IMG/VR virus record: IMGVR_UViG_3300025679_000001
Location: 1 to 64,000 of that record
Reading direction: 5' to 3' (one strand)
Origin: a virus
DNA: 64,000 nucleotides
Shown here: positions 44,432-64,000 of the stretch, in pieces
How positions within the stretch are numbered: the first letter of the stretch is position 1
Layout: each line of letters starts with the position of its first letter
The notes under the pieces: model-generated
Database searches by the model: none
Told to the model about the DNA's origin: nothing
What the model saw: only the letters and a program-made list of their open reading frames with translations
Made by a program: the position numbers and the translations under genes

Positions 44432-45052
44432 TCATTCTTCCTTCCACGGTGCGTCGCCGGAACTCGGGATGTTCTTCGGCCTAAACTTCTTGCCTAGGAC
44501 GCGCTCCCTGTCGTCGTAGTTGTCTATGAGCTCCAGCCTGTTCACGATTATGTTGAGCGCCACGGGGGCAAAATTGTTAACGTCGGCGCCGACGTTGATA
44601 GCTCGTCCCGGGATCTCGAACTTCCCATCAGGGCCCTCGAAGACGTTGTGAACGTGCCCGTACACGTGATAGGAGTTACGGTGGAAGCCATGCCACTCTA
44701 GGATCGGATAGTGATACATGTGAAAGTGTAGGCCGTGAACTTTGGTGATGAGCTCAGGATAGCACCCGGCCCACGGCAGCCTCTTGATCTTCGCGTCGTC
44801 GTGATTGCCGTGAATCAGGAACTTCTTGCCGTTGAGCGCCCTGAAGTAGAGTGACGGGTCCTTGGCCGCACGAAAAGAGAAGTCTCCGACGTGGTAGACC
44901 GTGTCGTTAGGCTTGACTCTCTTGTTCCAGTTCTCGATCAGGACCTCGTCCATCTCCTCGACGCTGGCGAAGGGGCGCTTCGAGTGCGCTATGATCTTCT
45001 CGTGCCCGAGATGGGTGTCGCTGGTGAAGTATACGCTGTCTGTGTTGCTCAT
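44432..45052 (-). CDS. calcineurin-like metallophosphoesterase
   Basis: 206-aa ORF. FTSDTHLGH, VGDF, HGNHD and YGHVHN are the full metallophosphoesterase motif set. Confidence 0.8.
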   Translation of the reverse strand: MSNTDSVYFTSDTHLGHEKIIAHSKRPFASVEEMDEVLIENWNKRVKPNDTVYHVGDFSFRAAKDPSLYFRALNGKKFLIHGNHDDAKIKRLPWAGCYPELITKVHGLHFHMYHYPILEWHGFHRNSYHVYGHVHNVFEGPDGKFEIPGRAINVGADVNNFAPVALNIIVNRLELIDNYDDRERVLGKKFRPKNIPSSGDAPWKEE

Positions 45053-46269
45053 GCTGCCTTCCTATCGCTTTTGATGACGCCGACCTCGGAGTGCGTGCTC
45101 TCTGGCGATCGGCCGATCGAGATGGTCTTGAAAAAGTGCGTACAGTCTGCATCCTCTACGAGCTTGGTGACACCGGCGAGGTCTGGAGTATATACGTCAC
45201 GAGTGTGCTTGTTGTTGACGAACTGGATTGCGTCGAGCTGGTCGCAGCAGGTCACGATGAGGTTCGACCTGGCGTTGCCGCTCGGACCGATAGGAAGCGA
45301 CGTTATAATGTCATGGTCGATTCTCTTGAAGACGGAGTGGTCGAGATGGCCAGTACGAAAGCCGCCCTGCCACTCGTTGTGAACGTTAGTCTCGTCCTTG
45401 AAGCGAGGAATGTACGTTGACCTCTCAAGATCACTGAGGTGTTCATGAGCGAGGGGCCCTTTGCCGTGGCGGGTCACGTATGCTCTGGTGACGTAGAACC
45501 ACTCACACTTGACCTTTGGACTAAGGCCAAACAGACCAGCCTTGTACACGTTGTGACCTCCAGTTCTCGACCTGGTCACGTGAGGCATGATTCCAGTCAC
45601 CTCGTCGAGACCGAGACCCTGCCCGGATTCGTAGATGACGCGCTTCGGGTCCCCGACGGCGCTCATGTCTATCTTCAGGCCCTCGATGATAGAGTCCGTC
45701 GACAGGAAGCTCAGGTCCGTCGGCCATACTGGTGCGTCCATGAACTTCTCGATCTCCTCTTTGGAGACGACGCCTATTAAAGCGAGACGCTTCTTATAGT
45801 AAGCTTTGATATTGTTAGAGTCAGCTCCACTGCCGATCTGAGCGTAGCGGGTAACGCACTCGTTGATCCCGTGCCCGCAAGAACCGTGACGGTTGGCACC
45901 GCGGGCCGTCTCGATCAACTGGTTCGCGATCATGTCGAGATTCGAGACGATCTTAGCGTGCTTGTGAACGTACACCTTGGGGGTGAAGCCGAACGTTTTC
46001 TCGAACGCCTCGATCTCCTTCTGGAGGAGGACCGGGTTGACGCAAAATGTGTGGTCGAGAACGGTAGCAGCACCTTTAGGAGCGCCGGAGCCGAGCTGGT
46101 TGAACACCACCCTAGAACCGTTGGTCTCGACGGTGTGCCCGGCCTGTGCTCCACCGTTGTGCTTAACGACGACGGTGTCCGAGTCAGAGAGCAGGTGTGT
46201 AGTTCGACCCTTTCCCTCGTCCCCGTAGTTGGCGCCGATGACGGCGAACACTTCCTCTAAAGCTGCCAT
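45049..46269 (-). CDS. adenylosuccinate synthetase family protein (divergent PurA-like; PurZ-type function not excluded)
   Basis: 406-aa ORF. P-loop GANYGDEGKGR, GGAQAGHT, TRHGKGPLAHE, GGFRTGHLD and TCCDQLD parallel PurA motifs. PurA GTTGRGIGPAY is replaced by HGSCGHGINEC. Confidence 0.7.
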   Translation of the reverse strand: MAALEEVFAVIGANYGDEGKGRTTHLLSDSDTVVVKHNGGAQAGHTVETNGSRVVFNQLGSGAPKGAATVLDHTFCVNPVLLQKEIEAFEKTFGFTPKVYVHKHAKIVSNLDMIANQLIETARGANRHGSCGHGINECVTRYAQIGSGADSNNIKAYYKKRLALIGVVSKEEIEKFMDAPVWPTDLSFLSTDSIIEGLKIDMSAVGDPKRVIYESGQGLGLDEVTGIMPHVTRSRTGGHNVYKAGLFGLSPKVKCEWFYVTRAYVTRHGKGPLAHEHLSDLERSTYIPRFKDETNVHNEWQGGFRTGHLDHSVFKRIDHDIITSLPIGPSGNARSNLIVTCCDQLDAIQFVNNKHTRDVYTPDLAGVTKLVEDADCTHFFKTISIGRSPESTHSEVGVIKSDRKAA

Positions 46270-48093: not shown

Positions 48094-48660
48094 TCACTTC
48101 TTGAAGAGGTCGTCGTACGCTTCTTTCTTGTCGATGGGCCTTCCGTCTTTGTCAAAGATGTCTCCTTTGTCGTGCCGGGACTTTCCGGTACCTTCTAGCG
48201 ATACGTTGATGGGCACTCCCCCGAAGGTCTGGGTCACCGAGCACGGGAGCCTAGTGTCCTTCGGGAACCTGAACATCACCTTCTTCCCGCTCTCGTAGAG
48301 AGTGCAGTAAAGTTCTATCGGCCAGTCTATAACACTGTCGAAGGGAATGTACACCTTGTATGTCATGTCGGGACCCCTGGTGATGATCCGGTAGATCTTC
48401 TGGGCGTACGCGAAACCAGGCGGTGGCGGCCTGGGCGGTGGCCGAGAAGGACTGCTGACCGTTGGCTTAGGAGAAGCTCGAGGAGGAGTGAACATCTCCT
48501 GAGCAGTCTGGTACGCTTCGTTCAACTGACGAAACTTGTCGACGTTGCCCCCGACGTCCGGATGGTGTTTCTTAGCGTGCTTCCTGAACGCCTTCTTCAC
48601 CTCGTCGAGGGAGGCGGCGTTCTTACAGCCTAGGATGTAGAGGGCTTCTGTCAGCGTCAT
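48094..48660 (-). CDS. J-domain (DnaJ-like) protein
   Basis: 188-aa ORF. LDEVKKAFRKHAKKHHPDVGGN (HPD), a Pro-rich linker and a beta-rich C-terminal domain. Confidence 0.75.
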   Translation of the reverse strand: MTLTEALYILGCKNAASLDEVKKAFRKHAKKHHPDVGGNVDKFRQLNEAYQTAQEMFTPPRASPKPTVSSPSRPPPRPPPPGFAYAQKIYRIITRGPDMTYKVYIPFDSVIDWPIELYCTLYESGKKVMFRFPKDTRLPCSVTQTFGGVPINVSLEGTGKSRHDKGDIFDKDGRPIDKKEAYDDLFKK

Positions 48661-51649: not shown

Positions 51650-52741
51650 TTATGCGAACCCAGTCTTGAAGCCCTGTTCCTTGAGCTCGCCGTTGAAGAT
51701 CTCAGCGAGGGCGTAGTCTTTCTTATCTCCGGGACGAGGTTTGTTGAGGACGCGGCATGCCTCGTCGACCTCCTTGCCGACGAGTTTGCGAAAGGGGATA
51801 ACGCCATAGCAGCGCCCGGGCCTCATGATGGCCGGATCGAAGTCAGCGACGTTGTTGGCGTTGGCGGTGATGATGATCTTCTTCTTGCTCGAGTTGACGA
51901 TGCCGTCGGAGACGTTGAGGAGCTTGGCGATAGTCTCGTTCTTAGAGGCCTCTCGAGACAGCAGCAGGACGTCGGCGTCCTCCATGATCATGAGGTTGTT
52001 TTCGCCGGAGAGGAAGGAGACGTAGAAGGAGTCGTCCTTCATCAGGTCAGTGTCGTAGGTGGTCACGGCGTTGAGGCTGTGACGAGTGATCAGGTCGGCG
52101 ATGAGGCTAGTCTTTCCGGTCCCCATCGGCCCGTTCATGATCAGAATGGACGCGCTGCTCTCCATGAAGGCGTCCATCGTCCCCTTGACGTCCTTGATGT
52201 AGGGGTACGCCTCCTGGTAGACTGGGCCGTGGTCCTTGAGGGGCAGGATGAGAGTAGTCATCTGGTTGCTCCTGGTGTAGGCCCAGGTGATCATCGTACT
52301 GTCGGGCTGGACGTAGGCGTCCAGCTTACTCTTTAGGTCGTTGAACAACTTCTCGTTGGACCCCCAGAAAGTTATGACGTAACGGTTGGACTTCTTTCCG
52401 ATCTTTATCGGATCGTCGTCTGAACTGCTGTCCGACCCTTCGATCTTCTGCTTGACGTGGATGACGCCATCCTTGTAGAAGGCTACGGCGTGGTGAGGGT
52501 TGTACTGCTTGAAGCTGAGGTACTTCTTCAGGTGAACGACGGGATTCACAGTGTAGGACGATTCAGACGAGAGACAAGTCACTTCTTTCATGTCGCCCAA
52601 GTGGGCCGAGATGTCATACTGGTATTCTTCGTAAAAGGAGTAGGTTTTGACCATTAGTTGTCCTGGTTTTTCTGATGCTATCATTGCAGCTATAGCTCTT
52701 TTAGAGCGTGCCCGATGTATGAATTTTAGGTAGGATCGCAT
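51650..52741 (-). CDS. AAA ATPase (BCS1-like classical clade)
   Basis: Start set at ATG 52741 behind GGAG (the track GTG 52771 is less likely). Walker A NGPMGTGKTS, Walker B LMIMEDAD, and LLNVSDG...ITANA...DPAIMRPGRC. Confidence 0.65.
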   Translation of the reverse strand: MRSYLKFIHRARSKRAIAAMIASEKPGQLMVKTYSFYEEYQYDISAHLGDMKEVTCLSSESSYTVNPVVHLKKYLSFKQYNPHHAVAFYKDGVIHVKQKIEGSDSSSDDDPIKIGKKSNRYVITFWGSNEKLFNDLKSKLDAYVQPDSTMITWAYTRSNQMTTLILPLKDHGPVYQEAYPYIKDVKGTMDAFMESSASILIMNGPMGTGKTSLIADLITRHSLNAVTTYDTDLMKDDSFYVSFLSGENNLMIMEDADVLLLSREASKNETIAKLLNVSDGIVNSSKKKIIITANANNVADFDPAIMRPGRCYGVIPFRKLVGKEVDEACRVLNKPRPGDKKDYALAEIFNGELKEQGFKTGFA

Positions 52742-52752
52742 TCTTGTTACTC

Positions 52753-52781
52753 CTACTACAATCCTACCCACTAGTTGTCAA
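52753..52781 (-). promoter_or_regulatory. possible promoter TTGACA-N17-TAGTAG
   Basis: TTGACA at 52781..52776. The -10 overlaps the RBS of the AAA gene, so function is doubtful. Confidence 0.25.
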
Positions 52782-53272: not shown

Positions 53273-54682
53273 TTATGCTACGGCTCTATACTCGACCATC
53301 GAGCAACCCATAGCTGCTGCTGCTCTCTCAGCTTCTGTCTGGTGCGAGGTGATCTTCATCTCGCTCAGGACTCGGTCAGCGGCCCTCATCAGGTCCTCGT
53401 CACCGACGCCGGACGGTTTTTTAGCACCGGCCTTGATGTCGCGCTTGAGCGCGGTAGTCTTGGCGATCTCAACGATGTTGGCCGCCGAAGCTCCAGACAG
53501 GACGTCCCTGGCCGTGACGTAGGTCGTCTGACCGTCGTCGAGGAGCACTTCGAGGACCCTGCGGTTCTCGTCGTAGAGATGACGGGCGACCTTCTTACCA
53601 CAGGTGTTGGACTTGGTGCCGGCGAGGTTGATGTCGATGATCTTCTCGAACGTCGACTCGTCTGGTCGTCCGACGGTGATCTTACGGTCGATGCGCCCGT
53701 CGCGGACGACCGCCGGGTCGAGGTGGTGAGGCATGTTGGTGGCCAGTATCACCACGGCGCTGGAAGCCTGGAGGCCGTCCATCTCGGTCAGGAACGTCGG
53801 GACTATCGTCTGGTCCATGCCGGAGGTGTGGTTGGCACCCCTTCGACCGAGGACAGACTCAGCCTCGTCGATGAAGATGATGGCCTGGACGCCTGTCTTG
53901 ACGTGGTGTTCCCTGGCGTCGGAGAACAGGTTGCGGATGTTGCGCTCGGACTCACCAACGTACTTGTTCAGGATCTCTGGACCCTTGACGTAGATGAACT
54001 TGCCATTTCCTCCGGAGAGCTTGGCGACCTCGGTAGCCGCAGCTTTCCCGATCATGGTCTTGCCGCAGCCTGGAGGACCCTCGAGGAGGATTCCCTTCGG
54101 GACCTTGTAACCGTACTCAGTGTACAGGTGGGCGTGCTCGGTCTGTCCCACTATGAACTCGAGGAACTGTTCCTTGACGTCGTCGAGGCCTCCGATAGAC
54201 TCCCACTCTACGGGAACGAAGTCCTCCTCAGCTACGGTCGTGCCCTTCGACATTATGTCGGTGATTATCGTGCCTGATGCCACTAAGACCTGGTCGCCGA
54301 CTTCGGTGTCGAGGTCGAAGTCGTAGACGATCTTGGTGACAGAGTCAAGCTCTACTAAGCGCTCAGTCTTAGACAATACCTTGATGACGCGAGCAGCCAC
54401 GGTGACGAGCCCGTTACCCTTGAGCGTAGCGACGACGGCTCCCTGAACTACGGCGACCCTGGCGCCGAGCTTCAGCTTCTTGATAGTCTGTCCGCAGTGG
54501 GTTACGCCACCTCCGTCGGTCACCACTACGTACTTTTCAGTCGAGATTCCCTTGATAGTCGTTTCTGTAGAGAAGCCGATGATAAATCCCTGAACGGCGG
54601 GTGCTTCGGCGAGCTTCTGAGCAAAATCTTGAAACTCCTCGAGAGTTTCTTCGATCGACTGTTCTGTGTTCTTAGATGGCAT
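53273..54682 (-). CDS. classical-clade AAA+ unfoldase with OB-like N-domain (ARC/PAN/CDC48-like)
   Basis: 469-aa ORF with a GGAG RBS. GILLEGPPGCGKT, IIFIDEAESV, ILATNMPHHLDPAVVRDGRIDR. The N-terminal region is beta-rich (VVVTDGGGV...GARVAVVQGAVVA). Confidence 0.75.
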   Translation of the reverse strand: MPSKNTEQSIEETLEEFQDFAQKLAEAPAVQGFIIGFSTETTIKGISTEKYVVVTDGGGVTHCGQTIKKLKLGARVAVVQGAVVATLKGNGLVTVAARVIKVLSKTERLVELDSVTKIVYDFDLDTEVGDQVLVASGTIITDIMSKGTTVAEEDFVPVEWESIGGLDDVKEQFLEFIVGQTEHAHLYTEYGYKVPKGILLEGPPGCGKTMIGKAAATEVAKLSGGNGKFIYVKGPEILNKYVGESERNIRNLFSDAREHHVKTGVQAIIFIDEAESVLGRRGANHTSGMDQTIVPTFLTEMDGLQASSAVVILATNMPHHLDPAVVRDGRIDRKITVGRPDESTFEKIIDINLAGTKSNTCGKKVARHLYDENRRVLEVLLDDGQTTYVTARDVLSGASAANIVEIAKTTALKRDIKAGAKKPSGVGDEDLMRAADRVLSEMKITSHQTEAERAAAAMGCSMVEYRAVA

Positions 54683-54744: not shown

Positions 54745-55164
54745 CTATTTGCGAGGCTGAGGATTCAACAACCAGTCCTTGGTGAGCGCTATCTCACCGC
54801 GAAGGACTCCGATCATCCTCTCCTGCTGGTCTTTCCTACTGACATAGGAGTAGGGCCAGCCGTCTGGGACGAAGAGGCTTAATCTTTCTTCATCTGTGAG
54901 TTCGAGGTACGTCTGAGCGTTACGTGCTACTGTTGACCCAAGAAAGTAATCATTGGAATCAGAATCGCTCTCTAATGCTTTTTTAAGAACTGCCCACCCT
55001 GCGATGCAGCACGCCGTATTACAGTCGTTGACGGCCTCCTGAGCAGTCTTCTTAGTAATCTTATTAGTATAGTGATTAGGAGAAACATACGCCATCATCT
55101 TCGTTTGACTAGAGTCAAGCTTCTCGATGAAGGCCGCCAGGTCGCACATCTTCTTGTAGTTCAT
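54745..55164 (-). CDS. family-A small Cys-motif protein (paralogue 4)
   Basis: 139 aa. MNYKKMCDLAAFIE...NDCNTACCIAGW...LELTDEERLSLFVP...QERMIGVLRGEIALTKDWL. Confidence 0.6.
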   Translation of the reverse strand: MNYKKMCDLAAFIEKLDSSQTKMMAYVSPNHYTNKITKKTAQEAVNDCNTACCIAGWAVLKKALESDSDSNDYFLGSTVARNAQTYLELTDEERLSLFVPDGWPYSYVSRKDQQERMIGVLRGEIALTKDWLLNPQPRK

Positions 55165-56820: not shown

Positions 56821-57026
56821 CTAAAGAATCCTCCATTGCATAGAAGTAAAAACAGAATGGCATGCGTCGCGAAGGCGCTCCACGCGTTGTAGTTTCCAGC
56901 TTTAGGTTCCCCGTGAAGCATGATGTAGCCTATAAAATTGAGCGAGAGCCAGACTACTAAGATCCACTGGGGAAAGCCCCAGTCGCTAACGTTGATGCTA
57001 GAATTGATCACTGTTATGGGCGTCAT
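56817..57026 (-). CDS. small membrane protein
   Basis: 69-aa ORF with 2 TM segments. Confidence 0.45.
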   Translation of the reverse strand: MTPITVINSSINVSDWGFPQWILVVWLSLNFIGYIMLHGEPKAGNYNAWSAFATHAILFLLLCNGGFFR

Positions 57027-59059
57027 TTTTCGTCCTCCGTCACGACCAGCTCGGTCGTCTTCTTGTCGTATACCACAGAAAGGTGCAGTATGTCACCAGG
57101 ATTCTTCGCGAGGGCCCTGTCAGCTATCGAGGACTCGAGAGTGGACCTCAGCCTGCCGGGGAGACCTCGCGCGCCTGTGCGCGGGTCGTAGTTCTTCTCG
57201 CAGAACTTCTTGACCTCACCGTCGTGCACCGTGAAGTTGATGTTCTCCACCGAGTACGCCGATATGATCAGGTTCAGTTCCCTAGTGACGATCTTCTCGA
57301 TCACCTCGACGCTGAGAGCGCTGAACTGGACGATGTCCCTCCTGCCGCCGAACCTGTTGAGGAACTCTGGGCGGTAGGTAGAGTCGAGCTCGGCCATGGT
57401 GCGCTCCTGGGCCTGCGCCACGGTGAGCTTCTTGTCGAGGTAGTGAGTCTGCCCGATGTTGGTGGTGCAGAGCACGTAGCAGTCCTCGAAAGAGACCACT
57501 CGGCCGACGTTGTCAGAGAGCCTGCCGTCGCCGAGGATCTGGAGGAAGATGTTGAAGACGTCAGGGTGAGCCTTCTCGATCTCGTCGAGGAGGAGGACGC
57601 ACACTGGCTGGCGCCTGATGCCGTTCGTCAAGATGCCGCCGGCGTCGAAGCCCTCGTAGCCGGGAGGGGCGCCAATGAGCTTCGCCACGGCATGCTTCTC
57701 CATGTACTCGGACATGTCGAGCCTGAACAGAGACTTCTCGTCGCCGAAGAGGTTGACCGCGAGAGCCTTCGCCATCTCGGTCTTGCCGACTCCGGACGGT
57801 CCGGTAAAGATGCAGGCGCCGAGGGGCTTCCCTCGGGTGCGACGACCGATGCGGGAAGTCTTGACCATCCCGACCACGTGCTTCACCGCTTCGTCCTGCC
57901 CGAATATCCTGGACAGCATGCTCGGCTCGAGGTTGCGGAGCTTCTCGCGCTCGTCCTCGTTGAGCTTGTCAGCCGGGATGCCGGAGATCCTGGAGAATTC
58001 TGAGGTGACGTCACCGCCGGACAGCTTCAGGTTCTTGTTGACCTTCTCGACGAAGTCGTCGTGCTGCTTCCTAGTGTCGGACAGCGACTCCTCGATCAGC
58101 TCGAGCTTCTTCTTGATCTCAGCTTTAGCAGGGTTGTCGACGCCGCCCTTTCCCGCCAGCTTGGCGAAGGCGCCTATCGTCTTAGACTTGGCCCCGGCGG
58201 CCGCGTCGTCGAGGCGCTCGTCCTCGGTGTTCAGCTCGTCCATAGCCTTGATGTAGTTGTCCTCGGTGACGCGGAGTTTGGACGTCCAGCCGTCCAGCGC
58301 AGTCTTGTCTGCCGGAGAGATCTTCTCGTGTGAGTCCATCTTATAAGTGGCCAGCGACCGGTCGAGAAGGTTGACGCTTCGCGACGGCTGCGCCCTGGTG
58401 CTCGTCGACCTGTACTTGTTCGTCAGGGCTATAGACTGCTCAACGGCCTCGTCGGTGACGGCGATCTTGTGGTACGCCGCGAGCTGGTCGGCCGAGTCCC
58501 TCACTATGGAGCGGAGAGGACCGTCGTTCGGCTCGGCGATCTCCATCACGGTGAACAGTTCCTGCATGTCGGAGTGCGACTTGATGACTGAGTCGAAGTG
58601 GTTGTCCTTGACCTCGAAGATCACCTGGGTCTTTCCAGTCTTGATACAGCTCATGAGCGAGTTCACGAAGTGCTCGTGCCCGTTCTTGCAGGCGGTGAGA
58701 AAGTCGTTGTAGTCCTCGACGATGAGGATAGACCCGGAGGTCTGCTCGAGAGCGGTGATGATCTTCGACCACTCTGAGTCGACGGTGTTGCCGTCGCTCG
58801 ACGAGAAGAGGCCGTCGGTGTCGAGCCAGAAGATCCTCTTGGAGGAGATGTCGAACGGCGCACCGTCAGTCTTCTTCCAGGCCCAGAGGCCGAGACAGAT
58901 GGTGGAGCACCCGACGCCTCCCGGCCCGGTGATGACGATAGAGTTCGCGGCGCGCCTGGTCAGGATCGACGCCATCTCCTTGAGCTCAGCGTCCCTGCCG
59001 ACGCAGCGAAAGTTAGGAGTGTCGCGGAGCTTGTCCGTACCCTTGATCATGTAGTTCAT
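57023..59059 (-). CDS. ClpB/ClpA-like two-module AAA+ chaperone with degenerate NBD1
   Basis: 678-aa ORF. NBD2 is intact: FTGPSGVGKTEMAKALA, LLLDEIEKAHPDVFNIFLQILGDGRLSD, GARGL. NBD1 Walker A reads GPGGVGCST (Lys to Cys). A coiled-coil middle region is present and there is no Clp N-domain. Confidence 0.8.
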   Translation of the reverse strand: MNYMIKGTDKLRDTPNFRCVGRDAELKEMASILTRRAANSIVITGPGGVGCSTICLGLWAWKKTDGAPFDISSKRIFWLDTDGLFSSSDGNTVDSEWSKIITALEQTSGSILIVEDYNDFLTACKNGHEHFVNSLMSCIKTGKTQVIFEVKDNHFDSVIKSHSDMQELFTVMEIAEPNDGPLRSIVRDSADQLAAYHKIAVTDEAVEQSIALTNKYRSTSTRAQPSRSVNLLDRSLATYKMDSHEKISPADKTALDGWTSKLRVTEDNYIKAMDELNTEDERLDDAAAGAKSKTIGAFAKLAGKGGVDNPAKAEIKKKLELIEESLSDTRKQHDDFVEKVNKNLKLSGGDVTSEFSRISGIPADKLNEDEREKLRNLEPSMLSRIFGQDEAVKHVVGMVKTSRIGRRTRGKPLGACIFTGPSGVGKTEMAKALAVNLFGDEKSLFRLDMSEYMEKHAVAKLIGAPPGYEGFDAGGILTNGIRRQPVCVLLLDEIEKAHPDVFNIFLQILGDGRLSDNVGRVVSFEDCYVLCTTNIGQTHYLDKKLTVAQAQERTMAELDSTYRPEFLNRFGGRRDIVQFSALSVEVIEKIVTRELNLIISAYSVENINFTVHDGEVKKFCEKNYDPRTGARGLPGRLRSTLESSIADRALAKNPGDILHLSVVYDKKTTELVVTEDEK

Positions 59060-59145: not shown

Positions 59146-59394
59146 TCAGCTAACATTAACATTAACATCAATTTCCTCCTTGAGCTGGCAGTTTGGGTAG
59201 GCCTCCAGCGGTTGCCTTCTAGCTACGATATTATCATCTTTGACGCGCTTGTCAAGGTGTGCCTTGATGTCGTCTAACACACGGCCACACTCGAACCCTT
59301 TCGGACCGCAGAGGAGATAGGCACAGCACTCGTGTCCCATGCCTATCCCGCAGCGCTTCACTTCTTCTTTGGTGAGGAGGAGTTCCTTGCTCAT
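59146..59394 (-). CDS. Cys-rich small protein
   Basis: 82-aa ORF. CGIGMGHECCAYLLCGPKGFECG...YPNC. Confidence 0.45.
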   Translation of the reverse strand: MSKELLLTKEEVKRCGIGMGHECCAYLLCGPKGFECGRVLDDIKAHLDKRVKDDNIVARRQPLEAYPNCQLKEEIDVNVNVS

Positions 59395-61076
59395 CAGCGT
59401 GTACCGATGTTACCGAACGGGCTCTTCGTCTTCGCCGCGGCTTTCTTGTCAGCGACAGTCGTCGTTGCTGGCTTTCCGATCGTGTCGGAGTTCACGGCGT
59501 ACGCCTTGCGAGTAGAATTGCGCACGGCCTCGGCTTCCTTCGCGATCTCGTCCATCTTGACCCGCATCGACTCGATGCCCTCCTTGGTGATCTCGGTGGC
59601 TGAGGTCACGACCTGGCCGTAGCCCTGAAGGTCGTCGATAACCTTGGACAGCGCGTCGGCCTGCTCGTTGACGCCCATGGCCTGACGGATGGCTTCCTTC
59701 TGCGTCACAGCGTTGGTCGACTGTCGCATCTGGTCCATAGTGGTTCTGGCCATCGCTGACGACTCGCCGAGAGCGGCCATGGACACCGCCTGGAGGACGG
59801 TGCTGAGCCTGTCAGCAACGCCGGCCACTCCCTGCGAGTGCAGGATGCGGGCCGTGTTCATGTTGTCGGTGTTGTTGTCTCGCATGCCCTTAACGCGGAT
59901 CGCCTGGGTGGTGAGGTCGGCGTAGGTCGACATCGTGTCGACGGTGCTCGCGTCGACGGCCTTGATGTGCTGGTCGATCGAGAGCTTCTCGGACTCGCGA
60001 GTCATCTTGGCGATGGCGTCCTCGTCGGCCGGCCCTTCGGCCACCTTCTTGAGGAGGTCGCGGTTGTTGGCGTCGGCGGTCTTGAGCCCTTCCTGCATGA
60101 TGGCGTAGACGCCGGTCATGGAGTCGTTGGCGTCGGCGAGGGACTCGATCTGGCCGTTCATCTGGGTCAGGTGGTCGCGGATGCTGCCGATGCGGGACTT
60201 AGAGGTCTGCACGAAGTTGAGGGCCGTGGCGACTAAGTTCTGCTGGCGCTCCTTGTGCTCCTCGGACGAGATGTCCAAGAGCTCGCGGAGCTTCGCCTTC
60301 TGCTCGGCGAACTCGGGGTCATCGTCCTCGGGGGGCTTGGCCGAAGCTTCGAGAGTGACGGCCTCGCCGTTGAGCTTCCCGAGCTGCTCGTTGTCCTGGG
60401 CGATCGCTGCCTCCTCCCGGGCGATGTCCTCCTTGACGCTCTGCGGCAGTCCGCCGAACCCGAACAGGCCGCGCTTCGTCTTGAGGGCGGCGATTTGTTT
60501 CTGCTTCTCGGAGATGCTGTTGCTGATGTCGCCGACCTTGCCGTCGATCTCAGCCAAGTTCTTGCGACGCTCGTCCTCTTTCTGCCTGTCCTCGACGATA
60601 GCTTTGAAGGCGTCGAGCGTCATGCCGGACGTGCGGAGCTTGTAGACCGCGTCGATGATGTCGGTGAGAGGGCCCATGCCGTTCTCGAAGTCGATGAGGC
60701 CCTGGTTCATCTGGGAGTAGGTGTCCTTCAGCTCGGAGAAGGTGCCGGAGTCCGTGAGCTGGATGATCTCGGTCGCCATCGTCTCGCGCACGTTCTGCAG
60801 GTACTCCTTGAAGAGCTCCTGCTGGGCTACGTGCTCGCGGGACTCCTCCTTAGTACCAGTGAACGTCATCAGGGAGGCGAACTGCTTAGCTTTCTCCTTG
60901 GCGGAGAGCTTCTCGTTGAAGAGCACCTGGTAGAAGGGGTTGCTCTCGATGTCGGCGAAGCGGGGGTCGGCCACTACTGTGGACGTCTGTGTCTTCGCCT
61001 TTCCTCGCGCCTTCTGCACGTCGGCGAGGATCTCGTCGGCGGTAGTCCTTAACTTAGTCTTAGCTGATGTAGCCAT
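59394..61076 (-). CDS. long alpha-helical/coiled-coil protein
   Basis: 560-aa ORF, rich in A/E/K/Q/D/T, with no TM segment. The tentative TelA-like impression is unverified. Confidence 0.5.
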   Translation of the reverse strand: MATSAKTKLRTTADEILADVQKARGKAKTQTSTVVADPRFADIESNPFYQVLFNEKLSAKEKAKQFASLMTFTGTKEESREHVAQQELFKEYLQNVRETMATEIIQLTDSGTFSELKDTYSQMNQGLIDFENGMGPLTDIIDAVYKLRTSGMTLDAFKAIVEDRQKEDERRKNLAEIDGKVGDISNSISEKQKQIAALKTKRGLFGFGGLPQSVKEDIAREEAAIAQDNEQLGKLNGEAVTLEASAKPPEDDDPEFAEQKAKLRELLDISSEEHKERQQNLVATALNFVQTSKSRIGSIRDHLTQMNGQIESLADANDSMTGVYAIMQEGLKTADANNRDLLKKVAEGPADEDAIAKMTRESEKLSIDQHIKAVDASTVDTMSTYADLTTQAIRVKGMRDNNTDNMNTARILHSQGVAGVADRLSTVLQAVSMAALGESSAMARTTMDQMRQSTNAVTQKEAIRQAMGVNEQADALSKVIDDLQGYGQVVTSATEITKEGIESMRVKMDEIAKEAEAVRNSTRKAYAVNSDTIGKPATTTVADKKAAAKTKSPFGNIGTR

Positions 61077-61077
61077 G

Positions 61078-61542
61078 TTACTCTCCTTCGTTTTCAGTTA
61101 TTCTCGGTCGAGGGTTGTGCAGCCAACCGTAGTTAAGTAAGATCTCACCTCGCAGGACTCCCATCATCCTCTCGCGCTGGATTTTTTTGTCCATCGGTCT
61201 GGACCATCCGTCCGGGGTGAACAGCATGCTGCTTTCAAGGCCGGTAAGCTCCAACTCCTTTGCTGCAAAATCTCTGATATTATTAGGTAGATCGAAGACG
61301 TCGTCTGTAGTATCACCAGCAAAACCTTTTCCGTGCTTCAGCGCTGTCCATCCAGCTATGCAACAAGCAGTCCCGCAGTCATTAACTATAGCGTCCATTT
61401 CTTCCCGTGACCTATATCTCTTTGCTTGCGCCACTAAGACGTCGTGTGGAAATTTATTCTTGTCCTTGGGAAGGAACGTAGCCATGTCCACTTCCTTGTC
61501 GGCGATGAAGGTCGCCAGGTCGCACATCTTCTTATAGTTCAT
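61078..61542 (-). CDS. family-A small Cys-motif protein (paralogue 5)
   Basis: 154 aa. MNYKKMCDLATFIA...NDCGTACCIAGW...LELTGLESSMLFTP...RERMMGVLRGEILLNYGWL. Confidence 0.6.
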   Translation of the reverse strand: MNYKKMCDLATFIADKEVDMATFLPKDKNKFPHDVLVAQAKRYRSREEMDAIVNDCGTACCIAGWTALKHGKGFAGDTTDDVFDLPNNIRDFAAKELELTGLESSMLFTPDGWSRPMDKKIQRERMMGVLRGEILLNYGWLHNPRPRITENEGE

Positions 61543-61706: not shown

Positions 61707-61747
61707 AAAAAAGGTGGCCGGGCGCGAGGAGTCTCGCAGACCCGGCC
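61707..61747 (-). terminator. intrinsic terminator
   Basis: Stem 61716..61722/61741..61747 (7 bp) plus an inner 5 bp (61724..61728/61733..61737). On the minus strand it is followed by ACC-UUUUUU. Confidence 0.7.
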
Positions 61748-61790
61748 CGCGTTCCGGCCGAAGGAGGAGTTCTACCGGAGCGCGTTTTCG

Positions 61791-62732
61791 TTAAAGAGTC
61801 TTGACTCCCGGTGTGCTGTCGGTAGAGCCAGACTTCTTAGCAACGAGGCTCTTCGTAGCATCGGCCACGGCGATCGCGGTCGTTCCCGTCCACGCGCCGA
61901 CGACAGTGTCGTGGTCCTCACCGTTAACGATGCGGATGGTCGAGACGATCACCTCGGGGAGGGCCTTCAAATCTTTGAGGATGATGAGGTTCTGACCGAG
62001 CTTGGCCCAGTTCTTGCGCATGGCGTCCTCACCAGCGCGGCCGGCGTGACTTCCTTCCATGACGACGACGTGGAAGCAGTTGTACATCCTGGACGCCGCC
62101 TCGAAGAGGGTCATGTAGTCCATGTCCTCGGAGACCGGTTCGTCGCTTCCGAAGACCGTCTGGATTTCCTGCTTGGTCAGCTTGGTCGGCATGTTCTCGT
62201 CGCCGACGGTGAAGAGGAAGCCCTTCTGACCGCGCTTCTCGAAGGCGTCAGTCTTCGTCTTGAAGGCCGCCATGTAGAGGGGCAGATCATAGGACTCGGT
62301 GTTGTTGCCGCCGCCGTTGCCGGTGACGTACATCTTCTCGAGCTGCTTCACAGCTTCCATGTCGGACTCGAACTGCGAGACCTGGAGAGCCCGGGCGCCG
62401 ACGAACTTAACGTCGTCGAAGAACATAGTCATGATCGCGGGGTCCTCGACGGCTTTCTTGTCGACGAGCTCCTCGATGATGACGTTGAACTTTTTCATCG
62501 CCTCGTAGATAACGTCACCCATCGACCCGGTGCAGTCGAGGGCGAGGATGATCGGGAGCGACTTCGGGTTCAACACGGAGTCGCGGGCCTCGCGGACCTT
62601 AATGTTCTCCGGCTTGTGCCCGGAGTCGATGGTCGTAGACTTGAGGATGTCGTGGAGGCCCGTGGACGTCGCGTCCCCGCGCATCGTACTGTGGCTCATG
62701 TAGGCCGTAGACGAAAATCTTGAGTTACCCAT
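61791..62732 (-). CDS. von Willebrand factor A (vWA) domain protein
   Basis: 313-aa ORF. MIDAS elements ILALDCTGSMGD, GNGGGNNTES and FLFTVGDE. Confidence 0.7.
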   Translation of the reverse strand: MGNSRFSSTAYMSHSTMRGDATSTGLHDILKSTTIDSGHKPENIKVREARDSVLNPKSLPIILALDCTGSMGDVIYEAMKKFNVIIEELVDKKAVEDPAIMTMFFDDVKFVGARALQVSQFESDMEAVKQLEKMYVTGNGGGNNTESYDLPLYMAAFKTKTDAFEKRGQKGFLFTVGDENMPTKLTKQEIQTVFGSDEPVSEDMDYMTLFEAASRMYNCFHVVVMEGSHAGRAGEDAMRKNWAKLGQNLIILKDLKALPEVIVSTIRIVNGEDHDTVVGAWTGTTAIAVADATKSLVAKKSGSTDSTPGVKTL

Positions 62733-62737
62733 AACTA

Positions 62738-63751
62738 TTACTTCTCCTTCTTATACGCCTCCGCGGCCGGGTGGCCGAAGTCGACGAATTTCCTGACGCC
62801 GAAAGCGACCTCTCTGGCGCGCTCCCACTTAAAGTACTCCTGCACGGCGTCGTCGCAGCTCGGCGTGCTCAACCAGATGTCCATCGCTCGCGGAACGTCC
62901 TTGACGCCCTTGAGGCAGTACCTGGCGAGAGCCTTGACGCTCTCGAGGTCGATCCTAACATCAGCTCTCTTCTTTGTAAACAGCGAGTTTGGGACTGACG
63001 AGTGGACCCAGTTCGGGACCCTCTCTACTGTGGCGTTCCTAGGCTTGAAGAACCACCAACCTCCGACGACCTGGACGCTGTGCTTCTCGGTGTTGACGAA
63101 GACGTTCTGCGGGGTGAGGGCGAGGTGGACGATCTTCTGGGTGGACAAGAAGCACGTGAAGTCGCACAGGGATGACACGAGCCAAGCGACCGACCTTGGG
63201 TCCCACGGGCCCCACTTATTGACTACGTCCTCGAGAGCAGCAGAGGCTGCGTCCCTCTCTATAGTGACGAGCTGCTTTCCGTTTATCAGGGGGCTCTTGA
63301 AGAGTCGAGTCTCTACCGGGACGTACTTCCTAGCGTTCTCGAGAATGTTGTCCGGGGCGTAGCTGATGATGTTGTTCATCAGGTCGACGCCCTTTCTTAC
63401 GAAGGGTTCGTTCGGGAGGACACAAGCTAAGTGCGTTTCGGACACGTACTCGTCACCGAGGTCGCCGTTCCTCTTCTTGAGGTAACTATAAGCTACAGCA
63501 GCCGACGACGTGGTGAAGGTGACCGTGTTCTCACCGAAGCCAGTCCAGACCCCGGACTCCATCTCCTTGACGGCGCGCTCCCTCATCTTATTTAAGTTCG
63601 TGAAAGCGTCATTAGCCCGAGGGTCCCTGGACCTGTCGGGGTGAACGACTTTGGCGAGGTTCTTGAACCTCACATCGACGTCTACTGAGGTGAGGCACCC
63701 GGCGAAGATCCGGTGTATCTCTGGAGAGAGTGCGGTGTCGATGTCTGTCAT
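62738..63751 (-). CDS. J-domain protein fused to a kinase-like (probably catalytically dead) domain
   Basis: 337-aa ORF. The N-terminus FKNLAKVVHPDRSRDPRANDAFTNLNKM carries the HPD motif. The C-terminal part IVHLALTPQNVFV...VVGGWWF mimics the HRDLKPEN / DFG region with the catalytic Asp replaced. Confidence 0.55.
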   Translation of the reverse strand: MTDIDTALSPEIHRIFAGCLTSVDVDVRFKNLAKVVHPDRSRDPRANDAFTNLNKMRERAVKEMESGVWTGFGENTVTFTTSSAAVAYSYLKKRNGDLGDEYVSETHLACVLPNEPFVRKGVDLMNNIISYAPDNILENARKYVPVETRLFKSPLINGKQLVTIERDAASAALEDVVNKWGPWDPRSVAWLVSSLCDFTCFLSTQKIVHLALTPQNVFVNTEKHSVQVVGGWWFFKPRNATVERVPNWVHSSVPNSLFTKKRADVRIDLESVKALARYCLKGVKDVPRAMDIWLSTPSCDDAVQEYFKWERAREVAFGVRKFVDFGHPAAEAYKKEK

Positions 63752-63754
63752 GAT

Positions 63755-64000
63755 TCAGTGTCGCTTCTTTATGTCAAACTTCACTACCTTCAGTCTCGAG
63801 TCGACCTCTTCACCTCCGGTGTACTGTGAGATTACGCTGGTCGTGGTCGAGATGACTGAGTCAATGAGGTTAGCCACGTCAGTTTCACTGACCCCCTGGT
63901 GCATACAAGACTCCCTGAAGTTTAAGAGAGCCCCGACGAACCCTCCGACGATCCCAGCCTTAAGAGAGTCCGAGTCGATAACGCTACCTTCGTAGGACTC
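63755..64000 (-). CDS. hypothetical protein (partial, 5' end beyond right edge)
   Basis: Own translation, open to the edge: ...SLKAGIVGGFVGALLNFRESCMHQG...RLKVVKFDIKKRH. The stop TGA is at 63757..63755, 3 nt before the next ATG. Confidence 0.45.
   Translation of the reverse strand, partial: ESYEGSVIDSDSLKAGIVGGFVGALLNFRESCMHQGVSETDVANLIDSVISTTTSVISQYTGGEEVDSRLKVVKFDIKKRH

Follow-up and report, generated by a model that had tools for sequence, protein, structure and literature searches.

Fusion of a J-domain to a predicted pseudokinase is encoded together with a vWA/MIDAS protein in a mainly phage-borne gene module

In a stretch of viral DNA analysed here (IMG/VR record IMGVR_UViG_3300025679_000001, positions 1 to 64,000, hereafter the window), two adjacent genes on the minus strand encode a J-domain joined to a protein kinase fold that lacks the catalytic residues, and a cytoplasmic protein with a von Willebrand factor A (vWA) domain and a metal ion-dependent adhesion site (MIDAS). 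The window makes up the opening 64 kb of a virus record that is 175,763 bp long, carries direct terminal repeats and is rated 100% complete by CheckV. The family of the J-domain/pseudokinase fusion is referred to as J-PsK, its window member of 337 aa as J337, and the vWA partner of 313 aa as vWA313. J-PsK and the vWA protein are obligate partners, and the pair is usually followed by a gene for an enzyme resembling PurA. By analogy with known vWA systems, J337 is proposed to be an Hsp70 co-chaperone scaffolded by its pseudokinase, with the vWA protein as an adaptor acting on the PurA-like enzyme, a proposal to which we give about an even chance of being right. The features of the pair are given below; residue conservation was counted over 62 relatives for J-PsK and over 48 homologues for the vWA protein.

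62738-63751, minus strand: J337, J-domain/pseudokinase fusion, 337 aa (open reading frame; family hidden Markov model (HMM) E 2e-103; AlphaFold2 model; VIA-align)
61791-62732, minus strand: vWA313, cytoplasmic vWA/MIDAS protein, 313 aa (phrog_2971 E 1e-33; family HMM E 1e-128; fold)
62744-62749, minus strand: AAGGAG, Shine-Dalgarno sequence of the vWA gene, within the final codons of J337 (read from sequence)
61707-61759, minus strand: terminator-like hairpin (61716-61759) with a run of six U (61707-61712), GC-rich, 32 nt past the vWA stop codon
63554-63751, minus strand: J-domain, residues 1-66 of J337, with helix II (22-36), HPD (37-39) and long helix III (46-66) (profile; secondary structure of the model)
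63635-63643, minus strand: HPD codons H37, P38 and D39 (conservation among the relatives)
62741-63553, minus strand: protein-kinase-fold domain without catalytic residues, residues 67-337 of J337 (fold matches; motif conservation)
63104-63127, minus strand: degenerate catalytic loop, residues 209-216, HLALTPQN for HRDLKPEN, with Ala211 for the catalytic Asp (alignment)
63056-63064, minus strand: GGW (residues 230-232) in place of DFG (alignment)
62523-62537, minus strand: MIDAS loop D66-C-T68-G-S70 of vWA313 (D66 and S70 invariant; T68 and G69 at least 90%)
62292-62297, minus strand: E146-S147 in the loop after GGGGN, the likely acidic/Ser ligand of a βI-type MIDAS (invariant)
62199-62201, minus strand: D178 of the GDE motif after strand β4, MIDAS Asp (G177 and D178 invariant; strand 171-177 in the model)

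Both open reading frames lie on the minus strand where the initial annotation had placed them, and the 5-nt gap that it described separates the stop codon of J337 (62738-62740) from the ATG of the vWA gene (62732). The peptide strings that it quoted are all present: KVVHPDRSRDPRANDAF forms residues 34-50 and IVHLALTPQNVFV residues 207-219 of J337, VVGGWWF occupies residues 228-234 of the same protein, and DCTGS residues 66-70 of the vWA protein. As read from the sequence, the two genes are translationally coupled, since the ribosome-binding site of the vWA gene sits within the end of J337. The start at 62732, giving 313 aa, was favoured over a gene call of 302 aa (P0168) because the MG...R(F/W) N-terminus that it yields is common to the homologues. 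Upstream, J337 begins 3 nt past a 131-aa open reading frame, which is preceded by a 134-aa frame and the endolysin gene, the latter 0.9 kb from the pair and in the same orientation. Promoter-like hexamers at 63750-63777 were disregarded, as they overlap the J337 start codon. The 'strong terminator' reported earlier downstream of the vWA gene was borne out in part. The hairpin and its U-run are present, with a folding energy of -31 kcal/mol; the strength claimed for them was not, as the z-score against shuffled sequences is only -1.8 and a simple terminator scan did not flag the hairpin 3' of the vWA gene. The element thus looks like a terminator, on modest evidence.

The HPD motif of J337 is placed between the model helices 22-36 and 46-66 and is conserved almost without exception (H37 in 61/62, P38 in 60/62 and D39 in 62/62 relatives). 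K30 and K34, on the basic face of helix II, and F50 in helix III are also conserved among J-PsK relatives. With J337 alone the match to Pfam DnaJ is weak (E 1e-3, 19.5 bits, against a curated cutoff of 27.8). A profile of five sequences, J337 and four relatives, matches solved J-domains at E 1e-6, Pfam DnaJ is matched by 53 of the 62 relatives at E <=0.01, and a protein 52% identical to J337 (P0002) reaches 36 bits. The N-terminal J-domain proposed earlier is therefore genuine by family profile and by its HPD, found in at least 60 of the 62 relatives. No Hsp70 gene was found in the 175.8-kb phage genome, and because the phage encodes no Hsp70, any J-domain function must use the DnaK of the host.

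To the C-terminal side of the J-domain the chain adopts a kinase fold. Structure prediction and fold searches were carried out with an AlphaFold2 model built on 62 sequences (mean predicted local distance difference test (pLDDT) 96.5), and residues 65-337 have this fold. In a VIA-align comparison with 48,161 solved chains, J337 matched Wee1 with Z 18.7 (root-mean-square deviation 3.3 over 214 residues); 285 chains were obtained at Z >=8, and all among the matches listed were protein kinases. Foldseek gave a probability of 1.00 to VRK3, CK1 and PDK1, its top match being the DNAJB1-PKA chimera, which covers both domains. In a viral structure library J337 matched only viral Ser/Thr kinases. The closest solved kinase by sequence to the J337 profile is VRK3 (2jii, E 0.003), which is also near the top by Foldseek. 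VRK3 is a pseudokinase.

The kinase motifs of J337 were located through the secondary structure of the model. The Gly-rich loop of J-PsK is down to one Gly (G99), and among the 62 relatives neither a conserved Lys in the predicted strand before αC (β3) nor a conserved αC Glu was found. At column 211, the position of the HRD Asp, Gly is seen in 25, Ala in 24 and Asp in 9 of the relatives. The catalytic-loop Asn is present in J337 (N216) and kept in only 28/62. The motif in place of DFG is nearly invariant (G230 62/62, G231 61/62, W232 61/62). The initial annotation had called a pseudokinase from Ala for the HRD Asp and GGW for DFG; the β3 Lys and the αC Glu can be added to these losses. By every canonical criterion, as judged from alignment and model, the domain is a predicted pseudokinase.

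J-domains and kinase folds on one polypeptide are also seen in GAK/auxilin-2 and in the DNAJB1-PRKACA chimera (4wb7, 8fe5). The kinases of both are active, unlike the predicted pseudokinase of J337, and a common origin is not implied. The J-domain of GAK is C-terminal, following PTEN-like and clathrin-binding regions, whereas that of J337 is N-terminal. VRK3 and other class-1 pseudokinases share with J337 the degraded Gly-loop, Lys, HRD and DFG and, as proposed for J337, a use as scaffold; VRK3 is eukaryotic and, unlike J337, lacks both a J-domain and a partner of vWA type.

The vWA identity of the second protein came from fold searches only. Its model has a pLDDT of 90, VIA-align matched it to the βI domain of integrin β6 at Z 14.6 with vWA domains throughout the top 50 matches, and Foldseek agrees on the fold. 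NorD (9qh8, Z 10.8) and BchD (2x31, Z 11.6) are among the structural matches. The sequence evidence is thin (Pfam VWA_4, E 0.02), and a search of PDB sequences with the vWA profile gave no match. A complete MIDAS had been proposed for this protein and is upheld: in addition to the confirmed fold, D66, T68, S70, E146, S147 and D178 are invariant or conserved in at least 90% of the homologues. The first Ser of the DxSxS motif is Thr in vWA313 (T68). From the integrin βI matches, E146 and S147 are likely to provide a MIDAS ligand, and the residue set fits a predicted metal site of βI type. Gly2, at the N-terminus of the protein, is likewise invariant.

The association of the two genes was examined with home-built HMMs for the neighbours of J-PsK and the vWA protein. 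J-PsK is followed directly by the vWA gene in two further IMG/VR loci, L006 (52% and 63% identity) and L007 (~25% identity), in mycobacteriophage Cali (gp251, gp252) and in the bacterium Thalassospira xianhensis. When 21 viral loci were picked by J-PsK peptide patterns alone, 20 had room downstream, and in 20/20 of these the vWA gene was the next gene on the same strand. The pair is thus co-conserved down to ~25% identity. The family is large, with 583 representatives at E <1e-30, one per 50%-identity cluster. It occurs in 204 records of isolated phages, nearly all of them cluster C (Cali-related) Mycobacterium phages, where it is annotated as 'serine/threonine kinase'. It took PHROG and HMM profiles to reveal this relation; tblastn with J337 as query gave no match among 50,697 phage records. 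In 401 sampled Pseudomonadota genomes, a full-length J-PsK match was seen in the seed genome only, other matches being to the J-domain alone. As none of the 400 genomes besides the seed has a full-length match, the family is mainly phage-borne and all but missing from ordinary bacterial chromosomes.

The association was also approached from the vWA side. vWA relatives were found on 516 IMG/VR contigs, and the best 80 loci gave 68 clusters at 90% identity. In the 65 clusters with room upstream, the gene directly upstream of vWA encodes J-PsK in 34, a Met-rich protein in 8 and neither in 23. The Met-rich protein, of 237-276 aa, takes the place of J-PsK in Rhizobium and Vibrio phages and may partner the vWA/PurA-like core in its stead. 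It has a conserved N-terminal domain and a tail rich in Met, Gly and Gln (L001 4738-5568 in a Rhizobium phage; L002 5222-5935 in a Vibrio phage).

The usual third gene of the module encodes a PurA-like ligase, which in the window is separate from the pair:

45049-46269, minus strand: PurA-like ligase, 406 aa (Pfam Adenylsucc_synt E 5e-38, profile positions 1-310 of 416)

A PurA-like gene follows the vWA gene in Cali, in the Rhizobium and Vibrio phages and in Thalassospira. In 60/63 viral clusters it lies after vWA in the same orientation and no more than 3 kb away (within 700 nt in 46, 700-3000 nt in 14), and it comes after vWA in 18/19 of the loci picked by J-PsK. The exceptions include a close relative of the present phage (L006/L045/L145), which has a split arrangement likewise. 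In the window the genes flanking vWA are J337 and that of a 154-aa protein, with no PurA-like gene directly downstream. The sole copy in this phage genome is the one at 45049-46269, and because it is 15 kb from the pair, the initial annotation did not see this partner. The window protein is 36% identical to the vWA-adjacent copies of Vibrio phage Va1 and Thalassospira. When it was aligned with the housekeeping PurA of Thalassospira, the GDEGKG P-loop, the AGHT catalytic His and the EGxQG motif were found to be kept, the aspartate loop (TGRxRRxGW) was replaced, and the guanine-specificity motif TKLD had become TCCD. The neighbours of the PurA-like gene in the window encode a DNA-ligase OB-domain protein, a methyltransferase and a 206-aa protein without a Pfam match.

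In Thalassospira xianhensis the trio (L008, NZ_JPWA01000001.1, 241171-258196) stands directly after four NAD-salvage genes, for NMNAT-Nudix, NadE, NAPRTase and an isochorismatase-family (nicotinamidase-like) protein, and two DNA methyltransferase genes; this genome has a separate housekeeping purA. NAD-related genes are also upstream in the Rhizobium phage locus. NAD salvage was dropped as a general context of the module, being sporadic in viral loci: NMNAT/Nudix is within 6 kb in only ~6/101 of them, and in the present phage the only match is a weak one to Nudix at ~106 kb.

J-domain proteins decide the targets of Hsp70. In the mechanism proposed here, the J-domain of J337 would recruit and fire host DnaK through its HPD. 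The kinase fold, with its canonical ATP-binding and catalytic residues gone, would be a binding scaffold that holds the vWA protein and so ties it to the J-domain. The vWA protein would grip a client through its MIDAS, by analogy with CbbQO, NorQD and BchI/BchD, and the client would probably be the PurA-like enzyme. ATP-driven remodelling would then be supplied by DnaK, in the role that the MoxR AAA+ ATPase has in MoxR-vWA systems. J-PsK and vWA would together form the accessory half of a mainly phage-borne module, whose core would be vWA and a PurA-like enzyme with a rebuilt aspartate loop. While the folds, the lost motifs, the coupling of the genes and their co-conservation are firmly established, the engagement of DnaK, the contacts among the proteins and the client are inferred. 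This mechanism is favoured because of the analogy with MoxR-vWA systems, the strict conservation of the HPD and the linkage of the genes.

The analogy concerns the activase pairs of a MoxR AAA+ ATPase and a vWA protein, CbbQ-CbbO, NorQ-NorD, BchI-BchD and CoxD-CoxE. In these, as proposed here, a cytoplasmic vWA/MIDAS adaptor is coupled genetically to an ATP-driven remodeller and a client enzyme. The proposed motor of the present pair differs, being host DnaK acting in trans through the J-domain, and the comparison is one of analogy, not of membership. Membership in the MoxR-vWA pairs was rejected, as no MoxR AAA+ gene is adjacent; the nearest AAA+ genes are a ClpB-like gene (57023-59059) and an AAA gene ~6 kb upstream.

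Several observations weigh against the co-chaperone proposal. In this phage and in its close relative, 15-16 kb separate the PurA-like gene from the pair, which weakens the case for the PurA-like enzyme as client in this phage. J-PsK accompanies only 34 of the 65 vWA/PurA-like clusters, so that the vWA/PurA-like core works without J-PsK in many phages. At the HRD position 9/62 relatives still have Asp, and H224, K261 and D268 are conserved, which leaves room for unorthodox catalysis.

Such catalysis is the basis of the reading in which J337 would be an unorthodox active enzyme (a kinase, AMPylase or glutamylase; compare SelO, SidJ, WNK and CASK) that modifies the vWA protein or a host target, its J-domain serving only for folding or targeting. 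H209 is conserved as well (54/62), Cali gp251 scores above the Pfam Pkinase threshold (33.8 vs 31.7 bits), and in a cluster of structural neighbours in the ESM Atlas 100% of the members carry Pkinase and 82% DnaJ. An enzyme of this kind would have to act without a conserved β3 Lys or αC Glu, with a single Gly in its loop, with Gly for the DFG Asp in 62/62 relatives and with the catalytic-loop Asn in 28/62; its nearest solved kinase by sequence is, moreover, a pseudokinase. We consider it unlikely. Rated somewhat lower, as a speculative and improbable idea, is that the trio could be a protein-nucleotide conjugation system. PurA activates inosine monophosphate; the PurA-like enzyme might activate a purine nucleotide and join it to a protein amine, for instance Gly2 of the vWA protein, instead of to aspartate, and DnaK, brought in by J-PsK, might present the modified protein or release it. 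The facts behind this idea are the invariant Gly2 and the altered aspartate loop and TKLD motif. If true, it would be a post-translational chemistry of large phages that has not been described.

Other readings place the pair in a different process. A host-takeover device acting on the chaperone network would redirect or titrate DnaK for the ClpB-like/AAA+ island of the phage, the PurA-like link being incidental. Such an action has a precedent in Rki of phage RB43, a J-domain protein with action on DnaK and σ32 (PMC3486835), and the ClpB-like gene is 2.7 kb from the pair, with two AAA+ genes and another J-protein nearby. Against this reading, the island is specific to the lineage; the constant neighbours elsewhere are vWA and PurA-like genes rather than chaperones, and the pair is also found in a bacterial genome beside NAD-salvage genes; this reading is rather unlikely, if less so than the enzymatic one. 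Assembly of virion proteins, a role that Iyer et al. 2021 (PMC7824862) predict for the DnaJ and MoxR-vWA genes of jumbo phages and that is proposed for tail assembly of the Acidianus two-tailed virus, would agree with the presence, 0.9 kb upstream, of an endolysin gene that points the same way. No structural gene of the window is adjacent to the pair, the neighbours in the Cali, Rhizobium and Vibrio phages are nucleotide/NAD metabolism genes and hypotheticals, and the Thalassospira copy stands among NAD-salvage genes, all of which makes a virion chaperone very doubtful. A relation to the TerY-P triad and Ter stress-conflict systems, the analogy drawn in the initial annotation, is suggested by a vWA protein beside a kinase-fold protein and by a 560-aa coiled-coil protein downstream. 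That analogy fails for want of a PP2C phosphatase, none having been found in the neighbourhood, and of an active kinase, the kinase motifs being dead. Pfam matches to TerD, TerB, TerC or TelA were likewise missing among the scanned neighbours, and the PADLOC matches of both proteins are insignificant. TerY-P membership was accordingly rejected, and any kinship with these systems appears extremely improbable.

Among the systems closest to J337, Rki (ORF057w of the T4-related phage RB43) was the first characterised phage J-domain protein; it binds DnaK and stabilises σ32 (PMC3486835). Both Rki and J337 are encoded by phages, and each is expected to contact host DnaK through the HPD of its J-domain. 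Rki lacks a kinase fold, a vWA partner and a PurA-like neighbour, and the sequence relation that can be detected between it and J337 is confined to the J-domain. In a survey of jumbo phages (PMC7824862), DnaJ domains of phages and MoxR-vWA pairs are mentioned and the present module is not. The closest counterpart in an isolate is Cali gp251 (Bxz1-like, cluster C), which belongs to the same family (HMM E 3e-27) with the order J-PsK, vWA (gp252) and PurA-like (gp254). It is ~24% identical to J337 in the conserved core only, and its catalytic-loop motif HGA lends no support to the database name, which implies an active kinase. The PurA-like gene is adjacent in Cali and 15 kb away in the present phage.

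The combination of J-domain, pseudokinase and vWA had not been recognised in the initial annotation. Full-text literature searches gave no description of a J-domain-pseudokinase/vWA/PurA-like module, and to that extent the combination is unfamiliar; it is not peculiar to this phage, being present on hundreds of viral contigs and in ~200 cluster C mycobacteriophages. The module is thus common, and can be tested in these existing isolates. The label 'serine/threonine kinase' in cluster C phages is not supported by the motifs. Should the co-chaperone mechanism be true, it would be a new viral way to aim the main chaperone of the host at one specific task, and the steady link to a re-tooled PurA-like enzyme hints at unknown nucleotide chemistry.

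The pair lies in a lineage-specific, chaperone-rich region that includes the ClpB-like gene, two AAA+ genes and a second J-protein. The features of this region and its surroundings are:

57023-59059, minus strand: ClpB-like double-AAA+ protein, 678 aa, without N-terminal domain (sequence)
48094-48660, minus strand: second J-domain protein, stand-alone, 188 aa (Pfam DnaJ E 5.8e-11, above cutoff)
51650-52771 and 53273-54682, minus strand: two AAA+ genes (469-aa protein: classical AAA domain, E 2e-34)
61078-61542 and 54745-55164, minus strand: paralogous small proteins of 154 and 139 aa (phrog_889, function unknown)
59394-61076, minus strand: Lys/Glu-rich protein of 560 aa, probably coiled-coil (no Pfam match; weak PADLOC AbiLi match, E 5.5e-4)
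68557-69186 of the genome (L005 8557-9186), minus strand: GIY-YIG homing-endonuclease gene (phrog_314 E 2e-41)

The first Walker A motif of the ClpB-like protein reads GPGGVGCST and the second, GPSGVGKT, is intact; since Cys replaces the Lys of the first, ATPase activity is probably lost in domain D1. A stretch of ~110 coiled-coil-like residues lying between the D1 lid and D2 could be an M-domain, the part of ClpB on which DnaK docks. The ClpB-like protein shares 44% identity with its counterpart in Agrobacterium phage Atu_ph07, a ClpB, and the ribonucleotide reductase of the phage is ~60% identical to Roseobacter and Rhizobium phage versions; because of these similarities the host is likely an alphaproteobacterium. 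The two AAA+ genes and the ClpB-like gene make an unusually dense protein-remodelling set.

The stand-alone J-protein is encoded ~2 kb upstream of the PurA-like gene and brings the total of the phage to two J-proteins, with no Hsp70. The paralogues of 154 and 139 aa both start with MNYKKMCDLA and have a Cys-rich (N/G)TACCIAGW motif. Because an intergenic gap directly precedes both genes, transcription units of the chaperone-rich region may begin with them. The 560-aa protein is 63% identical in the relative L006, where its gene is two genes downstream of vWA. The GIY-YIG gene is located upstream of the operon, just beyond the window.

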